The notes under the pieces: model-generated
Told to the model about the DNA's origin: nothing
The model's input: only the letters and a program-made list of their open reading frames with translations
The model's database searches: none
Made by a program: the position numbers and the translations under genes
In this document: piece after piece, positions 546 through 15,290 of the stretch
How the letters are laid out: each line of letters opens with the position of its first letter
Position numbering within the stretch: the stretch's first letter is position 1
DNA from: Promethearchaeota archaeon
GTDB lineage: Archaea; Asgardarchaeota; Lokiarchaeia; Sigyniarchaeales; SOKP01
Assembly: GCA_048940445.1 (NCBI GenBank)
Contig: JBHLON010000047.1
Span: 1 to 19,261, forward strand
Direction: 5' to 3'
Length of the DNA: 19,261 nucleotides

Positions 546-678
546 AACTTTTTGAATATTTTTTGATCAGAATTTTATAGATCTAGTTGTAATTAAAACA
601 TTTTTATAGATTAGTTTTAAAATGATGATTTAATATTTTAATTAACTTAAATTTAACAAAAACCTATTGAAGGAGAAA

Positions 679-1920
679 ATGTCTACTTTTTTTACAGAAG
701 AGTTAATGCAAAGAATTCGTTATTTGCATTTTAAAATTAAAAAATTAGAAGAAGCTTTAGAAAAAGAGGAAGAACATTTCAGTGTTGATGATTTGAATCT
801 TATTTTGGAATATACTAAAATATTAAATATAAATTATCAGAACCAAAATCAATACGATATATTAAAAAAATTAGATATTACTTCCTCATTCTTTGACCCA
901 CTTGAAAATAATCGTGAAATTGACATAAAAGATATAATGTTTGAATGTGCTCGTGTTTTATGGGTTTTATCTAGAGCCTATTCACAGTTATCAGAGAAGT
1001 TTGAAGAAGATGAGGAATGGGAAAATGCTATTATTGCAATGGCTGAAAGTAGTAAATATTATAAAACATCGGCTTATTTCAGCGCTGCAGTAACCCAGCA
1101 ACCAGATCTGGGTAGTTCTCTAAACTCAGAAAACCTTGAGTTAAATTCAGAAGAAACTCGTATATTAGCACAAAGCATTGCGGCATTATGGGAAGAACAT
1201 AAGAGTAACATTTATTTTGCCTCAAAACTTTATGCTGGTTTAAGTGCATTATCTAAAAGGGTTTTTTATTTAAAGAAGCATGATGAAAAAAAGAAATATC
1301 AATTGAGAGCCCAATTTCATTTTGATATGGGGAAATCATGCTATTTAAAGGCACTTGCTTCATTAGAATCATCGATTACGTCTATCAATAAAGAAAAAGT
1401 TAAAAAATTACAGCAAAAGGCTAATTTTTACTTTATTAAAGCTAAAGAAATTTGGGACGATATGCTCAAATTAATTGCAGGTTTATCTGAAGATGATCAG
1501 GAAAGTATTAAATTGAATCTATCTATTGTAGAGGATCAAATAAAAAATAATGAAGTAGAAACTTTGCAATATGAAGAAATCAAGAAAATTCAAGATCCTG
1601 AACCTATTGTGATAATTCCTGAAAATTTAGCACCGTTTGTTCCAAAAAATGTAATATATCTTACCAAATTTGTACCTAAAGATTTAAACATAAAGAGATT
1701 TAAATCTTTCCAAAGAAAGAAGTTAGAACAAAAAATTCCATATAGTAAGCGAGAAAAATTAAATGATAAGAAGGCGGGAATCGTTAGAACGATAAATGAA
1801 TTGAAATCTTTAAGGGAAAATAATGAAATCGATTTAGAAAAGTTTGCTGAACTTATGGAAAGATATTCTACTAAACTTAAGATGATTGATACTGCAATTG
1901 AGAAAATTACTAAACAATAA
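679..1920 (+). CDS. Helical protein; putative Bro1/ALIX-like domain with C-terminal steadiness-box-like module
   Basis: Long ORF. ATG at 679 follows AAGGAG (670-675), so it is preferred over TTG at 667. Contains FFDP...DIMFECARVLWVLSRAYSQLS and a C-terminal GIVRTINELK...EIDLEKF. The gene is secure; the domain call is by eye. Confidence 0.6.
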   Translation: MSTFFTEELMQRIRYLHFKIKKLEEALEKEEEHFSVDDLNLILEYTKILNINYQNQNQYDILKKLDITSSFFDPLENNREIDIKDIMFECARVLWVLSRAYSQLSEKFEEDEEWENAIIAMAESSKYYKTSAYFSAAVTQQPDLGSSLNSENLELNSEETRILAQSIAALWEEHKSNIYFASKLYAGLSALSKRVFYLKKHDEKKKYQLRAQFHFDMGKSCYLKALASLESSITSINKEKVKKLQQKANFYFIKAKEIWDDMLKLIAGLSEDDQESIKLNLSIVEDQIKNNEVETLQYEEIKKIQDPEPIVIIPENLAPFVPKNVIYLTKFVPKDLNIKRFKSFQRKKLEQKIPYSKREKLNDKKAGIVRTINELKSLRENNEIDLEKFAELMERYSTKLKMIDTAIEKITKQ

Positions 1921-5550: not shown

Positions 5551-6765
5551 ATGAACCCTAAACAAGGAAAGCCCGATGAAGAAAATAATGAATTATTACA
5601 TACTAAAAACTTGACAGGGTCATCTTCAACTGCTAAATTGATAGAAGAATATGGCATCAATCCGATTAAAACTCCTGTAGTATTAAAGCTAAATGCGTAT
5701 AAAAGAATGGTTGGATATGCAATAAGATATGCAAATAATAAATTAGCAACAAGAAACTGGCGTGAAGTTTATGGGATTTTAATTGGATCTATTGAAGAAA
5801 ATAAAAGAGTTATCGTAAAAGATGCTATTCCCATGGTGGCAGGTGACCGAGCCGGAGTGAAATATGAAAGCAAACAATATGTTGATATGGCTCAGATTGA
5901 TGAATCTATATTCGAAAAATCTATTCAAGACAAAAAAAGTGATTTTATAATTGGATGGTGGCATTCTCATCCCGGTTTCAAATTTTTCTTTAGCCCAGTA
6001 GATTGCTTAACTCAATTGGGCTATCAAATTCCAAATCCGTTTGCCGTAGGTTTAATTTTCGATCATTGTGAATTAAAGTCATCTGATTTTTTTCTCGGAA
6101 TTGCAGCATTAAGAATATTAAATCCAGATAAAGGCATGTTCTCCACATACGATTTTACAGATTTGTCTTATGAATACGATGAAAAAAAGATGTTTAAAAA
6201 AGTAGAGCCTATATTCACTGATTTAGATAATAAGATCGAAAAAGTTTTAAAAGAGATAACATTAATAGATGAAATTTTACGTAAAAGATACTTAGCTCAA
6301 CTTCAGAGGAATTATGGTTTAATCTTGGTGCCTAAAAGTGACATTAAAGTCACGGATAATGAAGAAGAGGCTGAAGAAGATGAAAAATACCTGTATGAAT
6401 GGGATCCTGAATTTTTTAAAAAAAGCTATAGAATACCAAAATTTAGAGAAAAAGTAGAAGAACGAATTAAAGAATATGAAGATAAATTGCTTGAAATTAA
6501 AGATGATAATTCTAAGTTTAAACAAAGGAAGGAAAAATTTAAGAAGAAGATTCAAGCATTATTGTCAAAACCTAATGATTGGTATAATAAAATAATAGAA
6601 GAATTTACTAAACGAATAGAAATAATCTCTCCTTATTTTGAATATTTAGATACTGATGAGCGAAAAATAATCGAGCATTTCGAATCTAGGAGTTTTGAAT
6701 ATCAAACAATTTTAGATGATTTAAATAAGCGCTCAGAATTTAATAGAAATTTTGAATCTATATAA
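5551..6765 (+). CDS. JAMM/MPN+ metalloprotease (Rpn11/CSN5/BRCC36-like) with long helical C-terminal extension
   Basis: EVYGILIG (catalytic Glu) and GWWHSHPGFKFFFSPVD (H-S-H-x7-S-x2-D). The C-terminal half is charged and coiled-coil-like. Confidence 0.9.
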   Translation: MNPKQGKPDEENNELLHTKNLTGSSSTAKLIEEYGINPIKTPVVLKLNAYKRMVGYAIRYANNKLATRNWREVYGILIGSIEENKRVIVKDAIPMVAGDRAGVKYESKQYVDMAQIDESIFEKSIQDKKSDFIIGWWHSHPGFKFFFSPVDCLTQLGYQIPNPFAVGLIFDHCELKSSDFFLGIAALRILNPDKGMFSTYDFTDLSYEYDEKKMFKKVEPIFTDLDNKIEKVLKEITLIDEILRKRYLAQLQRNYGLILVPKSDIKVTDNEEEAEEDEKYLYEWDPEFFKKSYRIPKFREKVEERIKEYEDKLLEIKDDNSKFKQRKEKFKKKIQALLSKPNDWYNKIIEEFTKRIEIISPYFEYLDTDERKIIEHFESRSFEYQTILDDLNKRSEFNRNFESI

Positions 6766-7385: not shown

Positions 7386-8222
7386 TTAATTTGAAGCTTT
7401 TTGCATTATAATTTCATGCTTTTTTCTTTTCTCAAGAAACTTAACCCAATCAAAAGTCATAATAAAGTACATTATATTTAAAGTAACTATAAGTAATACA
7501 GCTTCAGTTATCACACTTGATGTATCTCCTAAGTCTACACCAGAAACACTTACTCCAAATGTAATTAGAATTGGAAGCATGGCATAGAATAATGTAGTAA
7601 AATTTTTGCCCATCCATGCTGTAATTAGGCATTTAGGAAAATTTATAGGTTTTTCTGCCATACCTAAAGCAATCCACAGAGGGTCATCGGGAATAGGTAA
7701 TGCAGCAGCGAAAAAAATATAAAGATACATAGTCTTAGGATGTTCTAATATAATTTTACTAAAGCCTTGTACATTTTTCAAAGTTTTACTTACAGTTTTC
7801 TTCTCTGCTATTTTTTTAGCACCTTTTCCGATTAGAAGACTCACAAATTCTCCTAAAGCACTACCTAAACCACCAATTAATGTGATGCCTATTATTTCTA
7901 ACCAGAAATATCCATCTAATAATACTCCTCCCAATGTTAAGCCTAAACCCAGATAATTTGAGTATATCCAATTTGAAAAAGAAAAAAGGATAAAAGGATA
8001 AGGAACAGGAAAACCTACACTAGCATTTCCTAATAAACAAATGAAAAATGAAATAATAAGTAAGAAAAGATAGTTTGTTCCTTCTATTAGAATTGCTATG
8101 CTTCTTCTTGCCTGAATAATAGCATCTCGTACTGAGGGAACTGTTAGAAATAAAATAAGATATAGAATAGTGGCTAAATAAAAGAAAATGAACACTATTG
8201 ATAACTTTTTTGGAACTGCCAT
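7386..8222 (-). CDS. DedA/VTT-domain membrane protein
   Basis: Multiple TM segments with GFPVPY, GSALGEFVSLLIG and FAAALPIPDD...I.LG motifs. Confidence 0.85.
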   Translation of the reverse strand: MAVPKKLSIVFIFFYLATILYLILFLTVPSVRDAIIQARRSIAILIEGTNYLFLLIISFFICLLGNASVGFPVPYPFILFSFSNWIYSNYLGLGLTLGGVLLDGYFWLEIIGITLIGGLGSALGEFVSLLIGKGAKKIAEKKTVSKTLKNVQGFSKIILEHPKTMYLYIFFAAALPIPDDPLWIALGMAEKPINFPKCLITAWMGKNFTTLFYAMLPILITFGVSVSGVDLGDTSSVITEAVLLIVTLNIMYFIMTFDWVKFLEKRKKHEIIMQKASN

Positions 8223-8236
8223 ACCATATATTACCG

Positions 8237-8632
8237 CTATCTCCTAGGAGCCTTAAAAATTTTGGTATTTAATCCATTATTCGCTTTTAGTATAATTTCT
8301 AAGTTGCTAGATATTTTTCCAATCAAATTTACCTTATTCGGCATTATGGAGTTTTCTAGAACTAATATTAATTCGTCTGATTTTGGATTGTAGATGATAT
8401 CTCCCTTCTCTACTTCTTTTTTAGATTTTGGATTCATTCCTTTAAAGATTTCCACGCCTGGAAGAATCCAATACTTTTTTGATCCAAAACTAAATCTCCC
8501 TCTTAATATAATGGGTAATTTATCTAATATAGCATCAGCAGATAAAGGAGCAAAATATCTATCAATATTTCCTTCTAAGCTACCAATTCCAAAAAGATCA
8601 ATCTTAATGGGTATTTGTCCACTATCAGACAT
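8237..8632 (-). CDS. Cyclophilin-like fold protein (small archaeal family)
   Basis: R.FAPLS.DAI...LPI...and V.KGDI.Y.P....L...N.IGKI pattern. Confidence 0.65.
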   Translation of the reverse strand: MSDSGQIPIKIDLFGIGSLEGNIDRYFAPLSADAILDKLPIILRGRFSFGSKKYWILPGVEIFKGMNPKSKKEVEKGDIIYNPKSDELILVLENSIMPNKVNLIGKISSNLEIILKANNGLNTKIFKAPRR

Positions 8633-8705: not shown

Positions 8706-8720
8706 AAAAAGATTTAAATA
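8706..8720 (+). promoter_or_regulatory. Archaeal BRE/TATA promoter for the candidate ncRNA
   Basis: Purine-rich AAAAAGA followed by TTTAAATA (8713-8720). This places a transcription start at about 8743-8744, the first base of the terminal helix. Confidence 0.55.
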
Positions 8721-8742
8721 GTCTTTTCATCATTTAATTTAT

Positions 8743-9226
8743 TGGACAATAGTATTGCATAGGATTTTGATACAAATAATACGGTCCACCATAGAAAAAG
8801 TTGTGACCATCTAATAAAGAAGATTTAAGCAATGATTTTTTTTTTGATACTTAAGGATTTAATGACGACATTGAATCCAATTGCTTAGTATTTTTGAATA
8901 ACGTTCATTCATCAAGAGTTTATATACGTTCTTGTAAATTATAATAAGCATCTATAATCATAAAAGCACCCGGGTAAATTAACACTCTGGAGCATTTAAC
9001 AAGATAATAAGTATTTTTTCCGTTGAGTAATTTATACTGAGGAGCAATTATAAAATGAGTTCTTGTGGTATTGAGTGGTTTTTTTGATACTCGAGACAAC
9101 AAAACGAAAATGCTCTTTAAAGAATTCCGTTTTCCCAATAGAAGCTTTGATCCAGGAGGGAATTCATAGGAATACATGTTTCCTTTGAAACATTTCTTCG
9201 GAGGTTATCGGAGCTACTATTGTCCA
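8743..9226 (+). ncRNA. Candidate large structured non-coding RNA of unknown family (~485 nt)
   Basis: Perfect 12-bp terminal pairing TGGACAATAGTA (8743-8754) / TACTATTGTCCA (9215-9226). Several internal helices include G-U pairs, and there is a C(UUCG)G loop at 9196-9201. A TATA box lies upstream and a T-tract downstream. No credible ORF covers the region. Confidence 0.65.
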
Positions 9227-10095
9227 CCTTTTTTTTCTTTATTTATTTTATCAAAATATTTTAAATCTTCAGGAGTATCAATATCGTAAAATTTATTTCT
9301 TGAATTTAATTTTATAGGAATAATTTTTCGATTTTGCGCAAGGTAAATATTCAGAGCTTCACGTATTTCTCGTAAAGTGTTACTCATAGAAATTTTAAAC
9401 AAAATTCCCATGAACTTAAAATTAAAAATGACAATTGGGACAACTAATTTTATAGGTTGTTCTTTTGAAACAAAATTTAAGTTAATTTTTTCAATTTTCT
9501 TAACCTTAAATTCACTTTTGCTATCTTCTGATTTTATAATAGATACAAATTTAGGAATAGTTTTTTTACTTTTTCTATTATAATCATCTAAATTATTTAG
9601 TTCTTGGAAGAAAATACACGGTTCAGTAGAAATCATATCTATATTATCATTAATAAAATCGAAAACTTCTTTTAATAACCCTACTTCGAAAACAGTGTCT
9701 CCCGGAAAAACAATAAATGTATTATGTTCTGCATAAATACATTTATTCTGAATTATAGAAAGTAAGGAATAAAGAGGGCCCTTCTTATACTGATTTCCAG
9801 CATGAACAATATTAACTTTGATATCTGATCTATTTTTAAATAATAACTGTACACAAGATTCAATTTTTTCTTTTAAGTAACCAGTAATTATCACTAAGTC
9901 TTCAAGATGTAATGTTAAAAGATTTTTAATTAAATTAGAGAGAATAGACTCATTATTTAGCGACTTTAATTCAATTACTGGTTTAGGTATGCTTTGAGTA
10001 AGAGTTCCATATCTAGTTCCCTCACCTGCGCATAAAATCACAGGGATTATCTTTTTTTCCTTAATTTTCTCTTGTGGTGACAATTGGATTTCCAT
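9217..10095 (-). CDS. Nucleotidyltransferase (NTP_transferase / GT-A fold) family protein
   Basis: VILCAGEGTR..LT..IPKP, IITGY, GPLYS, PGD.VF and C-terminal DIDTPEDL. The start is uncertain; ATG 10095 overlaps the end of map. Confidence 0.85.
   Translation of the reverse strand: MEIQLSPQEKIKEKKIIPVILCAGEGTRYGTLTQSIPKPVIELKSLNNESILSNLIKNLLTLHLEDLVIITGYLKEKIESCVQLLFKNRSDIKVNIVHAGNQYKKGPLYSLLSIIQNKCIYAEHNTFIVFPGDTVFEVGLLKEVFDFINDNIDMISTEPCIFFQELNNLDDYNRKSKKTIPKFVSIIKSEDSKSEFKVKKIEKINLNFVSKEQPIKLVVPIVIFNFKFMGILFKISMSNTLREIREALNIYLAQNRKIIPIKLNSRNKFYDIDTPEDLKYFDKINKEKKGGQ
9229..9248 (+). terminator. Oligo-T archaeal terminator after the candidate ncRNA
   Basis: T8 run (9229-9236) followed by CTTTATTTATTT, 2 nt after the terminal helix. 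It lies inside the last codons of the convergent gene. Confidence 0.45.
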
Positions 10096-12329: not shown

Positions 12330-12421
12330 TTTATATATTCTTTTTATCATAATTATATTCTAAATTAAATTTGAAAAGGAAATTAACAATAAATTTTTTG
12401 TTATCTTATAAAGGATTAACT

Positions 12422-13930
12422 ATGCCAAATTTAATTTGGAAAGGTAAAAATCAGCATTTAAATTCATCAAGTTTGAAATATAATTTTAAAGATTCTTTCC
12501 AAAAAAGCAAGTCTCAAATCTCTTCTACACTTGATAGATATAATCATAATTTTAAAGAAAGGAATAATAAAAAAGTTTGGAATAATCTTCTATTTTGCGG
12601 AGAAAATGAGCAAGTAATGAGATTTTTGCTAAATTATTTTTCTGGTAAAATTAATCTTATTTATATTGACCCTCCTTTTGCTACAGGAGGAAGTTTTTCT
12701 TATAAAATATACATTGGACCAAATAGTTTCAATGTATCTGCAAAAGCTTATTCAGATACATGGAAAGAAGGCATAGAATCATATTTAAACTTTTTATATG
12801 TTCGATTGATTCTAATGAAGAAATTACTTGCAGAAAATGGTAGTATTTATTTACATTTAGATTGGCATGTGAATCATTACGTAAAAATTATTTTAGACGA
12901 AATATTTGGAAATGAAAACTTTAGAAATGAAATTATATGGTCATATCCAGCAGCATCAGTTCAAACAAGAAGATTTTTTATTAGATCTTATGATACTATT
13001 TTATTTTATACAAAGTCTGAAAATTATGTTTTTAACGATGACCCGAATATTTATATGGAATATTCAGATCGTGTTAAGAATGCATTAAAAAGGGATGAGA
13101 ATGGAATTTTTTATTATAGAGGAGGAAGTCATGATGGTAAAAAACTATCACGAAAAGTATATGTTGAAGAAAATGGTATTTTTCCCAGAGACGCCTGGAA
13201 TGATATTCCATATATTAGAGCAAATACAACGGAATATCAAGGTTTTTCTACTCAAAAGCCTGAGAGATTATTGAAACGGATCATATTAGCATCATCAAGT
13301 GAAAATGACCTTGTTGCGGACTTTTTTTGTGGAACTGGCACAACTCTTATAGTAGCAGAAAAACTTAGTAGACATTGGATTGGTTGTGATTTAGCAAATC
13401 ATGCCGTTCATATTACAAGAAAGAGATTACTTGACATTTCAAAGAGTAATGACATTTTTAGTTGGAATGAACCTTATGGCAGTTCTTATCAACCCTTTGA
13501 AGTAATAAGCTTGAATAATAAATGTAATAATAATTTCATTCCTAAAAGCTTTATAAGTGAAAATATCGGGAATAATCTAAAAATAAAAGATAAGCCAGAT
13601 TTTGATATAGATTTTTCAATAGATCATAAAAAGGTATGTATTGAATTAAAAAGTTATAGTTTACCCTATATTAAGTCAATATCAAAAAAAATGAGAGCCA
13701 GAGTTACTTCATTTTATGACCTAATTGATTATTGGGCAATAGATTTTAATTATGATGAGAACGGTTTTAAAAATGAATGGTATTCATATAGAACACCAAA
13801 AAATCGGGAAATTGATTTAGTCTCGGCACCGTACACATATGAGAAATCAAATAAATATCATATCCAAGTAAAAGTTATTAATATTTTTGGGCAAGAAAGT
13901 ATTAAAGATTATATTATTAATATTAAATGA
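12422..13930 (+). CDS. Site-specific DNA amino-methyltransferase, beta class, type III Mod-like
   Basis: LIWKGK N-terminus, LIYIDPPF (motif IV), TQKPERLL.RII, DFFCGTGTT (motif I) and C-terminal DYWAIDF...VKV..IFG. ATG 12422 is preferred over TTG 12371. Confidence 0.92.
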   Translation: MPNLIWKGKNQHLNSSSLKYNFKDSFQKSKSQISSTLDRYNHNFKERNNKKVWNNLLFCGENEQVMRFLLNYFSGKINLIYIDPPFATGGSFSYKIYIGPNSFNVSAKAYSDTWKEGIESYLNFLYVRLILMKKLLAENGSIYLHLDWHVNHYVKIILDEIFGNENFRNEIIWSYPAASVQTRRFFIRSYDTILFYTKSENYVFNDDPNIYMEYSDRVKNALKRDENGIFYYRGGSHDGKKLSRKVYVEENGIFPRDAWNDIPYIRANTTEYQGFSTQKPERLLKRIILASSSENDLVADFFCGTGTTLIVAEKLSRHWIGCDLANHAVHITRKRLLDISKSNDIFSWNEPYGSSYQPFEVISLNNKCNNNFIPKSFISENIGNNLKIKDKPDFDIDFSIDHKKVCIELKSYSLPYIKSISKKMRARVTSFYDLIDYWAIDFNYDENGFKNEWYSYRTPKNREIDLVSAPYTYEKSNKYHIQVKVINIFGQESIKDYIINIK

Positions 13931-13931
13931 A

Positions 13932-15290
13932 TTATTTCATTAATTCTCTCAATAACATTGTTGCGTAAGATCCTCGTTGAAGTGAGAATTCTAATCTTAA
14001 TTTCATTTTACCTTGAAAAACTTCATCTTTAGTGAATTCTAAAAGTTTCAAACCATTAGGTTTAACGATCATTGATCGAAAAGCACCTTTAAATTCAAAT
14101 TCTCTTAATAAGTTATTGTTAAATACCTCTTCATCTATTTGCTCCATCATATATATTTCTTTAATTAATTCATTCATTAGTGGAAATTTACTTAAATCGG
14201 TATCATATCCTATTAATGGGATTACAATAGCAGCATGGTTTAACCTTAAGGCTTCTTTTAAGTGTCTATCATAAAGTCCTCCATATTTATATACTATCTG
14301 AGTACATTGTCCATTTACATCATCTAAAATACTAATTAGATCCCCTTTAATCGGTTTTAGCAACGGATATCCTTTTTTGATTCTTAATGATAGCATTTTA
14401 TTAAATAGATAGGATTGAAAAGAACTAATTAATAATTTTTTCAAATAATTAGGTAATTTATTTACCGCTCCTTTATAATCTCCCTTGTTCTCAATTAAAT
14501 GCTTAATCATTATCTTTTCATAATTTAAGCTAGCAGGAAAATCATTGTAAGCCTTTTCAAGATCACCAGTTTTCGCTAATTCATTTCGTACATTTTGTGA
14601 TATATCCATCTCTGTAGAATATGTATTAACTACGTATTCATCAAAAGCTTCTTTGAATTTTCCCTCTAATAAAAATTTACCAATAAGATGGGAATTGGGC
14701 CTAAAAGTGCCAAATCTTTGGAGCCCAAAATAGTTGGGAAAACCTTGATTTTTAAGTACTTTAAAGATTTTTTGAATTCTGTTTAAAGGATTATTTGCAT
14801 TTTCAATATTCCTAATTATAATTACAAAATGATTGCCCCAATGGCTTCCTAATTTTACAGATCTTCTTGATGAATGCACATTTCTTAGAAAAATGTCTCT
14901 AATTTTTAAATTTCTAAGTCTATCTACATAATCTCCCTTTATGGAAAACTTTTGAATACTTATAGAACATTTGTCCTTTAATCCCGAATAAGAAATTAAG
15001 TCTGCAGGTATATTTAAAGCATCACTTAGAAGTTCAATAGCTTCAAAAGTTTCTTTATTTATTTTGATTAGATTAAACGTTGTATACTTGTCTTTTGAGT
15101 CTTCTGAAAACGACCTTGTATCATCATACTTTAAATGAAGAACATAGCCTTTTTCATCGATTTCTTTGACAATAAAGTCCTTGGAAGAATTTTTATATAG
15201 TCCCTGAATTCCTTTAATTTTTGAGCTGGAATAAATATCTATAGATACAAACTTCTCAACCTCTTTTTCATCATTGTTTTTGAATGTTAT
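13932..15290 (-). CDS. truD: tRNA pseudouridine(13) synthase TruD
   Basis: The frame is open upstream of the track's GTG (14879) to a stop at 15321-15323. The extension carries K.SKDFIVKEI and the catalytic YSGLKDK. Downstream are GNHF.I.IR, FPNYFGLQRFG and F.L.RGSYAT..LRE. The start is uncertain because no canonical start codon is in frame. Confidence 0.93.
   Translation of the reverse strand: MTFKNNDEKEVEKFVSIDIYSSSKIKGIQGLYKNSSKDFIVKEIDEKGYVLHLKYDDTRSFSEDSKDKYTTFNLIKINKETFEAIELLSDALNIPADLISYSGLKDKCSISIQKFSIKGDYVDRLRNLKIRDIFLRNVHSSRRSVKLGSHWGNHFVIIIRNIENANNPLNRIQKIFKVLKNQGFPNYFGLQRFGTFRPNSHLIGKFLLEGKFKEAFDEYVVNTYSTEMDISQNVRNELAKTGDLEKAYNDFPASLNYEKIMIKHLIENKGDYKGAVNKLPNYLKKLLISSFQSYLFNKMLSLRIKKGYPLLKPIKGDLISILDDVNGQCTQIVYKYGGLYDRHLKEALRLNHAAIVIPLIGYDTDLSKFPLMNELIKEIYMMEQIDEEVFNNNLLREFEFKGAFRSMIVKPNGLKLLEFTKDEVFQGKMKLRLEFSLQRGSYATMLLRELMK

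Follow-up and report, generated by a model that had tools for sequence, protein, structure and literature searches.

As far as we know, rRNA, RNase P RNA and SRP RNA make up the large stable RNAs so far described from archaea. The element analysed here shares with SRP RNA (RF01857) and RNase P RNA (RF00373) a single-copy gene, a TATA promoter, a closing helix (P1) and a U-tract terminator, but it carries neither an Alu or S domain nor the P4 and CR-I motifs, and both of these RNAs have their own genes at other places in this genome. Telomerase RNA, 7SK and Y RNA are flexible scaffolds with a conserved closing stem and short motifs, variable length, a fast-evolving interior and U-rich sites. 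The architecture they share with our element is a matter of analogy only, with no sequence similarity and, in a genome that is 93% complete, neither a reverse transcriptase (RVT_1) nor a Ro60/TROVE gene found, although a very divergent reverse transcriptase may have escaped the search. The element further resembles OLE, GOLLD and ROOL (10.1101/2024.12.08.627333) in being a large stand-alone RNA of unassigned function found by comparative genomics, even though it is archaeal, far less conserved in its interior and without an Rfam match. With Sm-class snRNAs it has in common a purine-flanked U-tract near +95 and a genome that encodes Sm-like proteins; unlike in snRNAs, however, the tract comprises 6–12 U and often lies in a hairpin loop, P1 closes the whole RNA, and no spliceosomal motifs were seen.

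In the window (the whole 19,261-nt stretch of Promethearchaeota DNA that was analysed), a predicted ncRNA gene lies between a divergent cyclophilin-like gene and a convergent nucleotidyltransferase gene (Table 1). The first-pass annotation had placed a candidate structured RNA in a 584-nt gap between genes. Upon re-reading of the sequence, every segment it quoted was present at its coordinates, including the TATA box at 8713–8720 and the perfect 12-bp inverted repeat 8743–8754/9215–9226. The gap, however, is not strictly gene-free, given that the convergent nucleotidyltransferase reading frame ends at 9217 with its stop codon within the 3' strand of P1, and the T8 run said to follow the helix does exist (9229–9236) but is separated from it by two C residues (9227–9228). 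Among 2000 dinucleotide shuffles, 14 contained a perfect 12-bp repeat whose arms were separated by 300 nt or more, and a chance origin of the closing repeat is unlikely. The element as a whole also folds better than shuffled sequences, with z = -3.03 on the + strand and -2.76 on the - strand.

Table 1. Predicted features of the element and its flanking genes (positions in the window).
Feature	Position	Strand	Remarks
A-rich BRE-like segment	8703–8712	+	precedes TATA box
TATA box	8713–8720	+	six of its eight positions do not vary among 32 homologues from across the family
Predicted ncRNA, ~487 nt	8743–9230	+	no conserved ORF; single copy
P1 closing helix, 5' strand	8743–8754	+	paired with 9215–9226
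CAWUGG motif (CAUAGG here)	8758–8763	+	nearly invariant; no fixed cis partner
Stem with U10 tract (8836–8845) and clade-specific hairpin (8855–8878)	8826–8887	+	from helix counts and U-tract position
Middle helix (8906–8918/8982–8994)	8906–8994	+	77–79% paired; better formed in homologues than here
Hairpin with U7 loop (9079–9085), then conserved GACA and AAAC	9061–9096	+	present in genera g1, g18 and g22
Long interrupted 3' hairpin abutting P1; outer stem 9144–9151/9207–9214	9144–9214	+	28 homologues
P1 closing helix, 3' strand	9215–9226	+	overlaps the neighbour's stop codon in many loci
U-tract terminator	9229–9236	+	U run of at least 4 within 16 nt of P1 in 84/85
Cyclophilin-like protein (PF04126, below cut-off)	8237–8632	-	divergent neighbour
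Nucleotidyltransferase (PF00483), preceded by MetAP	9217–10095	-	convergent neighbour

Several other genes of the window deserve mention in their own right. A 278-aa membrane protein without a Pfam match (7386–8222, -), which by its motifs we take to be DedA/VTT-like, is a neighbour in 77 of the 85 loci described below. Next to an Alba gene lies a 404-aa JAB/MPN-domain protein with a long, helical-looking C-terminal part (5551–6765, +), and a 417-aa ORF at 667–1920 (+) has no Pfam match. Based on sequence motifs, the ORF at 12371–13930 (+) is putatively DNA methyltransferase-like; it sits between AspRS and a putative TruD-like ORF (13932–14879, -), likewise assigned by motifs, which may start further upstream than listed.

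Searches among relatives yielded 85 homologues of 349–638 nt, with complete elements in 12 of the 13 genera of one Lokiarchaeia family, which we infer to be GTDB SOKP01. The flanks are mostly kept: the cyclophilin-like gene adjoins the element in 81 of the 85 loci, and the nucleotidyltransferase or MetAP gene does so in 83. Within the genus, BLAST matches were obtained in 36 of 36 genomes, many of them weak, yielding 28 full elements. R1, a covariance model built on the 3' 190 nt, matched 92 of 131 family genomes, with one copy each and one exception, while tracking the neighbouring genes recovered far more divergent versions in the remaining genera. In the thirteenth genus, the one locus examined holds the 5' part only, that is, the promoter, the 5' strand of P1 and CAWUGG, with no closing strand within ~900 nt (L214; G114, contig C87), and this copy is interrupted or decayed. 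The same genome has a second cyclophilin-like locus on contig C151. In another locus (L250; G147, contig C108) the 5' region is shortened and lacks CAWUGG. Downstream of the nucleotidyltransferase gene in L219 (G053, contig C2), a tandem array with a 22-nt repeat runs into an assembly gap.

Among the Asgard families searched, we found the element in this one only. R1 matched 0 of 19 genomes from other families of the same order; a promoter-plus-5' model (R2) gave only generic promoter matches outside the family; and the 5' pattern had 11 matches in 265 non-family genomes, none with a closing strand and nearly all in long ORFs. A loose TATA pattern told us nothing beyond the location of five further loci. 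In other Asgard families, loci beside cyclophilin-like and MetAP genes lacked the element, and the family that has it is apparently not the one with the cultured Lokiarchaea. It was not found in the viral contigs searched, and bacterial contigs gave pattern matches without the 5' part, except for one contig in a MAG titled Nanopelagicaceae bacterium (L285), which has a full element with Loki-type neighbours and is probably misbinned. Several records titled Hermod-, Thor- or Hodarchaeota (L252, L255, L319 and similar) share the gene neighbourhood of the element. Two TATA-led hairpin RNAs from other Lokiarchaeia families, L344 (G060, contig C1, near 429034, -) and L337 (G049, contig C84, near 652, +), have long C/U-rich, anti-Shine-Dalgarno-like unpaired stretches and no Rfam match, and are distinct from the element's family. 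We found no description of this RNA among the largely non-subscription papers searched for Asgard and archaeal noncoding RNAs.

No ORF shared across the homologues was found on either strand, and the CAU within CAWUGG is never replaced by CAC among the 85; a protein-coding gene or leader peptide was rejected on these grounds. An nhmmer search of the genome itself returned a single match, consistent with a single-copy gene, and this together with the fixed synteny led us to reject a MITE or other mobile element. From the sequence comparisons we conclude that the interval 8743–9230 (+) is a real, undescribed noncoding RNA gene outside every class tested, and that it is very probably transcribed. 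The earlier proposal of an undescribed large archaeal RNA on the + strand is thus supported by conservation, synteny, P1 covariation, the lack of an Rfam match and the presence of separate RNase P, SRP and 5S RNA genes in the genome.

The conserved TATA box and U-tract also bear out the suggestion of a promoter and terminator of its own, that is, a predicted transcription unit. In the 32 diverse homologues, positions -2 and -4 relative to the TATA box are purines with a conservation of at least 90%, and the spacing from TATA to the first G is 22–24 nt in 71 of the 85 homologues and 26–28 nt in 14, the latter being largely those whose P1 extends outward. From this spacing we infer a start at 8743/8744. 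U4-tracts serve as archaeal terminators that are also read by Loki aCPSF1 (PMC8716108).

Evidence for a single long RNA comes from P1, which is 10–15 bp long across homologues and, in contrast to the bulged-C stem of Y RNAs, has no conserved bulge. Within the first ten pairs, pairing among the 19 distinct haplotypes amounts to 97.4%, compared with 88.9 +/- 1.2% in column shuffles, and 0 of 5000 shuffles, which leave relatedness uncontrolled, reached the observed pairing. Double-sided changes occur at five positions (1, 2, 4, 6 and 10), in separate genera. In an RNAalifold analysis of the full genus alignment, only P1, the outer stem of the 3' hairpin and two stray pairs were recovered, with no double-sided changes among these close relatives. 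In five g18 sequences, inner pairs of P1 are lost and the helix reaches further outward, to 12 bp. Although other pairs would maintain the helix, positions 3 and 7 do not vary in any of the 85 homologues, suggestive of sequence-specific recognition. The oppositions within P1 (7 G-U versus 2 A-C) favour an RNA on the + strand. Since the folding scores are similar on both strands, folding alone leaves the strand unfixed; it is set by the G-U pairs in homologues and by the layout of promoter and terminator. Of the two arguments first offered for the + strand, G-U pairing is backed by the homologues, whereas the UUCG loop is not conserved.

These data also bear on the idea that there is no functional long RNA, but rather a promoter for a short RNA that stops at the internal U-tract, together with a terminator serving the convergent operon in both directions, or else a DNA element such as MITE ends or an origin. 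Indeed, the internal U10 is a candidate terminator, and the 3' domain alone can fold as a terminator-like hairpin before T8, competing with the inner half of P1 (a loose pattern for such a mimic hairpin was present in 57 of the 85 homologues). Moreover, P1 and the stop codon of the neighbouring gene overlap in 40 of the 85 loci. Yet the reading frame runs through P1 in 21 loci and falls short of it in another 21, and because P1 is kept in the 21 genomes where it lies beyond the frame, the coding overlap does not explain it. Covariation between ends 350–640 nt apart requires one molecule, the G-U wobbles favour RNA on the + strand, and a single copy at a fixed locus, with none in viral contigs, speaks against a DNA element. 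We consider this alternative very unlikely. At 9217–9226, the last codons and stop of the nucleotidyltransferase gene are antisense to the 3' strand of P1 and the U-tract, and a KKGGQ-type tail is present in 40 of the 85 loci. A 9-nt match of the 3' strand of P1 to 23S rRNA does not covary between genomes, and pairing between the two was rejected.

For the interior, we scored each helix by the percentage paired in the 7 nearest and the 28 genus homologues, and by this measure the secondary structure drawn in the first-pass annotation is only partly right. Its closing helix (100/96%) was confirmed, and the hairpins at 8855–8878 (100/39%) and 9071/9094 (98/59%) hold in near relatives; the stem 8826/8887 scores 79/45%. 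By contrast, the stems 8990/9115 (62/54%) and 9122/9165 (61/48%) are not conserved, and the proposed C(UUCG)G loop at 9196–9201 is a stem strand in the MFE fold, its hexamer occurring in 8 of the 85 homologues. The stem 8765/9213 (77/71%) is replaced by 9143–9151/9207–9215 (100/95%), and the true partner of 9207–9214 is, judging by these pairing counts, 9144–9151. This outer stem and the two inner stems of the 3' hairpin (9163–9166/9186–9189 and 9169–9171/9181–9183) are 95%, 92% and 93% paired in the 28 homologues, with changes that include U-G to C-G and U-A. A 3' hairpin stands directly before the 3' strand of P1 in most homologues inspected, its long form (9144–9214) being found in g1, g18 and g22, and 9136–9141 can alternatively pair with the 3' strand of P1. 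In the base stem of the hairpin 9061–9096, 5 of 6 pairs are kept in 27–28 of 28 homologues. For the middle helix, pairing probabilities were averaged and pairs counted over 48 homologues.

It is mainly the ends that are conserved, and the interior cannot be aligned family-wide. This matters for the possibility of a structured particle or ribozyme made of RNA alone, on the lines of OLE, GOLLD or ROOL. The size, the stand-alone gene and the multi-branch folds of the homologues (z from -1 to -4.9) would suit such a particle, but the GC content of ~30%, the mean pairwise identity of 43% (across three genera), the unalignable interior and the few conserved nucleotides make it a distinctly unlikely reading.

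We then considered whether the element is a known class that has diverged or been permuted past recognition, such as an RNase P/MRP paralogue, SRP RNA, tmRNA, 5S rRNA or a snoRNA. Its closing helix and size do resemble those of RNase P or SRP RNA, and the 5S gene of this family is truly circularly permuted and mostly missed by Rfam. However, cmscan against Rfam gave no match over the element at E<=5, and 20 diverse homologue loci gave only two unrelated weak matches at E<=10. The genome encodes a true RNase P RNA on contig C134 (122 bits) and a full-length SRP RNA on contig C101 (75.7 bits). The CR-I pattern of RNase P was found in 0 of the 85 homologues and a loose CR-V pattern in 12, and the SRP54 motif of SRP helix 8 in none; with no RF00373 match either, RNase P/MRP RNA and archaeal SRP RNA were both rejected. 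As for snoRNAs, box C near the 5' end was seen in 0/85 and box D near the 3' end in 3/85, K-turn-like counts were 1.33 versus 1.21 in shuffled sequences, and for H/ACA RNAs neither an ACA in the last 12 nt (0/85) nor a conserved rRNA complement was found, an internal GACA after one hairpin being confined to three genera; C/D box and H/ACA RNAs were rejected on this evidence. Comparing doubled, that is circularised, elements with known RNAs by BLAST and ARAGORN was negative. Pattern tests on the 85 homologues thus agree with the original remark that hallmarks of RNase P, SRP, tmRNA and tRNA are lacking, and its alternative, a known class in very divergent form, fell short in every defining feature that could be tested. 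We give it only a slight chance. In both strands of its P4, the RNase P RNA (L001:1501–1825) presumably differs from the sequence typical of archaea.

The absence of 5S matches had also suggested a supersized 5S RNA, an idea rejected when a permuted 5S rRNA gene was found on contig C59 (~79500–79690, +, core near 79530–79660), to which the element has no similarity. In this gene the 3' half comes first, and helix I is capped by a tetraloop and flanked by a long stem; further examples are L158, L174, L175 and L177. The break point differs by genus, lying in helix III here and before loop C in g18. With RF00001, matches are obtained in no more than 36 of the 126 family genomes, and almost all of them score below the cut-off.

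Closer to tRNA, P1 stacked on the 3' hairpin, with a GG-containing loop right after its 5' strand, might mimic the acceptor/T stack and D-loop, or UGGW might bind the NCCA end of uncharged tRNA in the manner of T-boxes and RNase P, making the element a sensor of translation or starvation. The order of 5' stem strand, GG-containing loop, large interior, hairpin and 3' stem strand is that of the tRNA-like domain of tmRNA, P1 is kept near 12 bp by register shifts, and UGG is present in 83 of the 85 homologues and followed by U or A in all. Against this, the present genome has AGG instead of UGG, a T-loop was found in 1/85 and the T-box motif in 6/85, ARAGORN reported nothing on the window element and 0/85 even when circularised, and no discriminator or CCA is conserved. 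Pair 3 of P1 is A3-U in 85/85, and the flank after P1 may be A, U, C or G, for which reason the CCA-like end suggested by this genome was rejected. The element has no T-arm, G3-U70, CCA end or tag frame, and SmpB was not found in the 93% complete genome; tmRNA was rejected accordingly, and a tRNA-related role in general strikes us as unlikely.

The CAWUGG motif lies from a few to ~16 nt after P1. By position, C, A and the first G are found in 85/85 and U and the final G in 84/85, with W between A and U. No consistent cis partner was found for it. A short, nearly invariant motif of this kind could be the seed of a trans-pairing guide or small regulatory RNA acting on a conserved RNA or DNA target with the help of SmAP. 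However, no conserved complement was found in 16S, 23S, RNase P, SRP or the 13 tRNA sequences tested, nor in the cognate 16S/23S flanks. Start codons show no excess of the complement (8/2175), and Shine-Dalgarno or start-codon mimicry was rejected. Given also that C/D and H/ACA boxes are lacking and that six nucleotides are short for a guide, we regard this role as rather improbable.

The U-tract is a further recurrent feature. In 48 of 59 non-redundant homologues a tract of at least six U starts between +60 and +125, and the 52 U runs versus 1 A run starting at +75 to +124 show it to be position- and strand-specific. The tract near +95 is often part of a hairpin loop, the stem below it varying by clade. 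It is absent from 11 of the 59, genus g20 included. The strict Sm consensus RAU4-6GR is present in 24 of the 85 homologues, and a looser tract of at least five U at +70 to +135 in 56. The genome has three LSm-domain matches, with SmAP loci on contigs C131, C94 and C26. Single-stranded, U-rich RNA is a ligand of SmAPs, and in Archaeoglobus these proteins are also associated with RNase P RNA (PMC3710371).

The reading that we favour, at a probability of roughly 40%, is that of a stand-alone housekeeping RNA serving as a flexible RNP scaffold recognised at P1/CAWUGG. A transcript running from ~8744 to 9230 would fold such that P1 stacks on the 3' hairpin, and P1 together with CAWUGG would form the site recognised by a dedicated protein. 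The U-rich loops would be bound by SmAP, which may in addition keep the internal U-tract from terminating transcription, and the 300–550 nt interior would, by analogy, be a fast-evolving tether for lineage-specific partners. The conserved ends, the variable length (349–638 nt) and the single-copy, syntenic position in a housekeeping gene cluster are in favour of such a scaffold, even though the occurrence in one family only limits how housekeeping the RNA can be. On the other hand, U-rich loops are common in RNAs of 30% GC, the strict Sm consensus and the U-tract are each missing from part of the homologues, the tract differs from snRNA Sm sites in its frequent placement within a hairpin loop, and the copies L250 and L214 lack CAWUGG and the closing strand, respectively. 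A bolder extension of the scaffold reading, which we hold to be quite a long shot, is that the RNA forms the core of an undescribed Asgard RNP, with a Sm-like ring on a scaffold RNA carrying a conserved functional 5' motif, as a prokaryotic parallel or relative of Sm-class RNPs with snRNP- or telomerase-like architecture.

A further conserved RNA of 350–640 nt across one Lokiarchaeia family is a novel element in the lineage nearest to eukaryotes. Its conserved ends, variable interior and U-rich loops, together with the presence of Sm-like proteins, make the existence of Sm-based scaffold RNPs in Asgard archaea directly testable.
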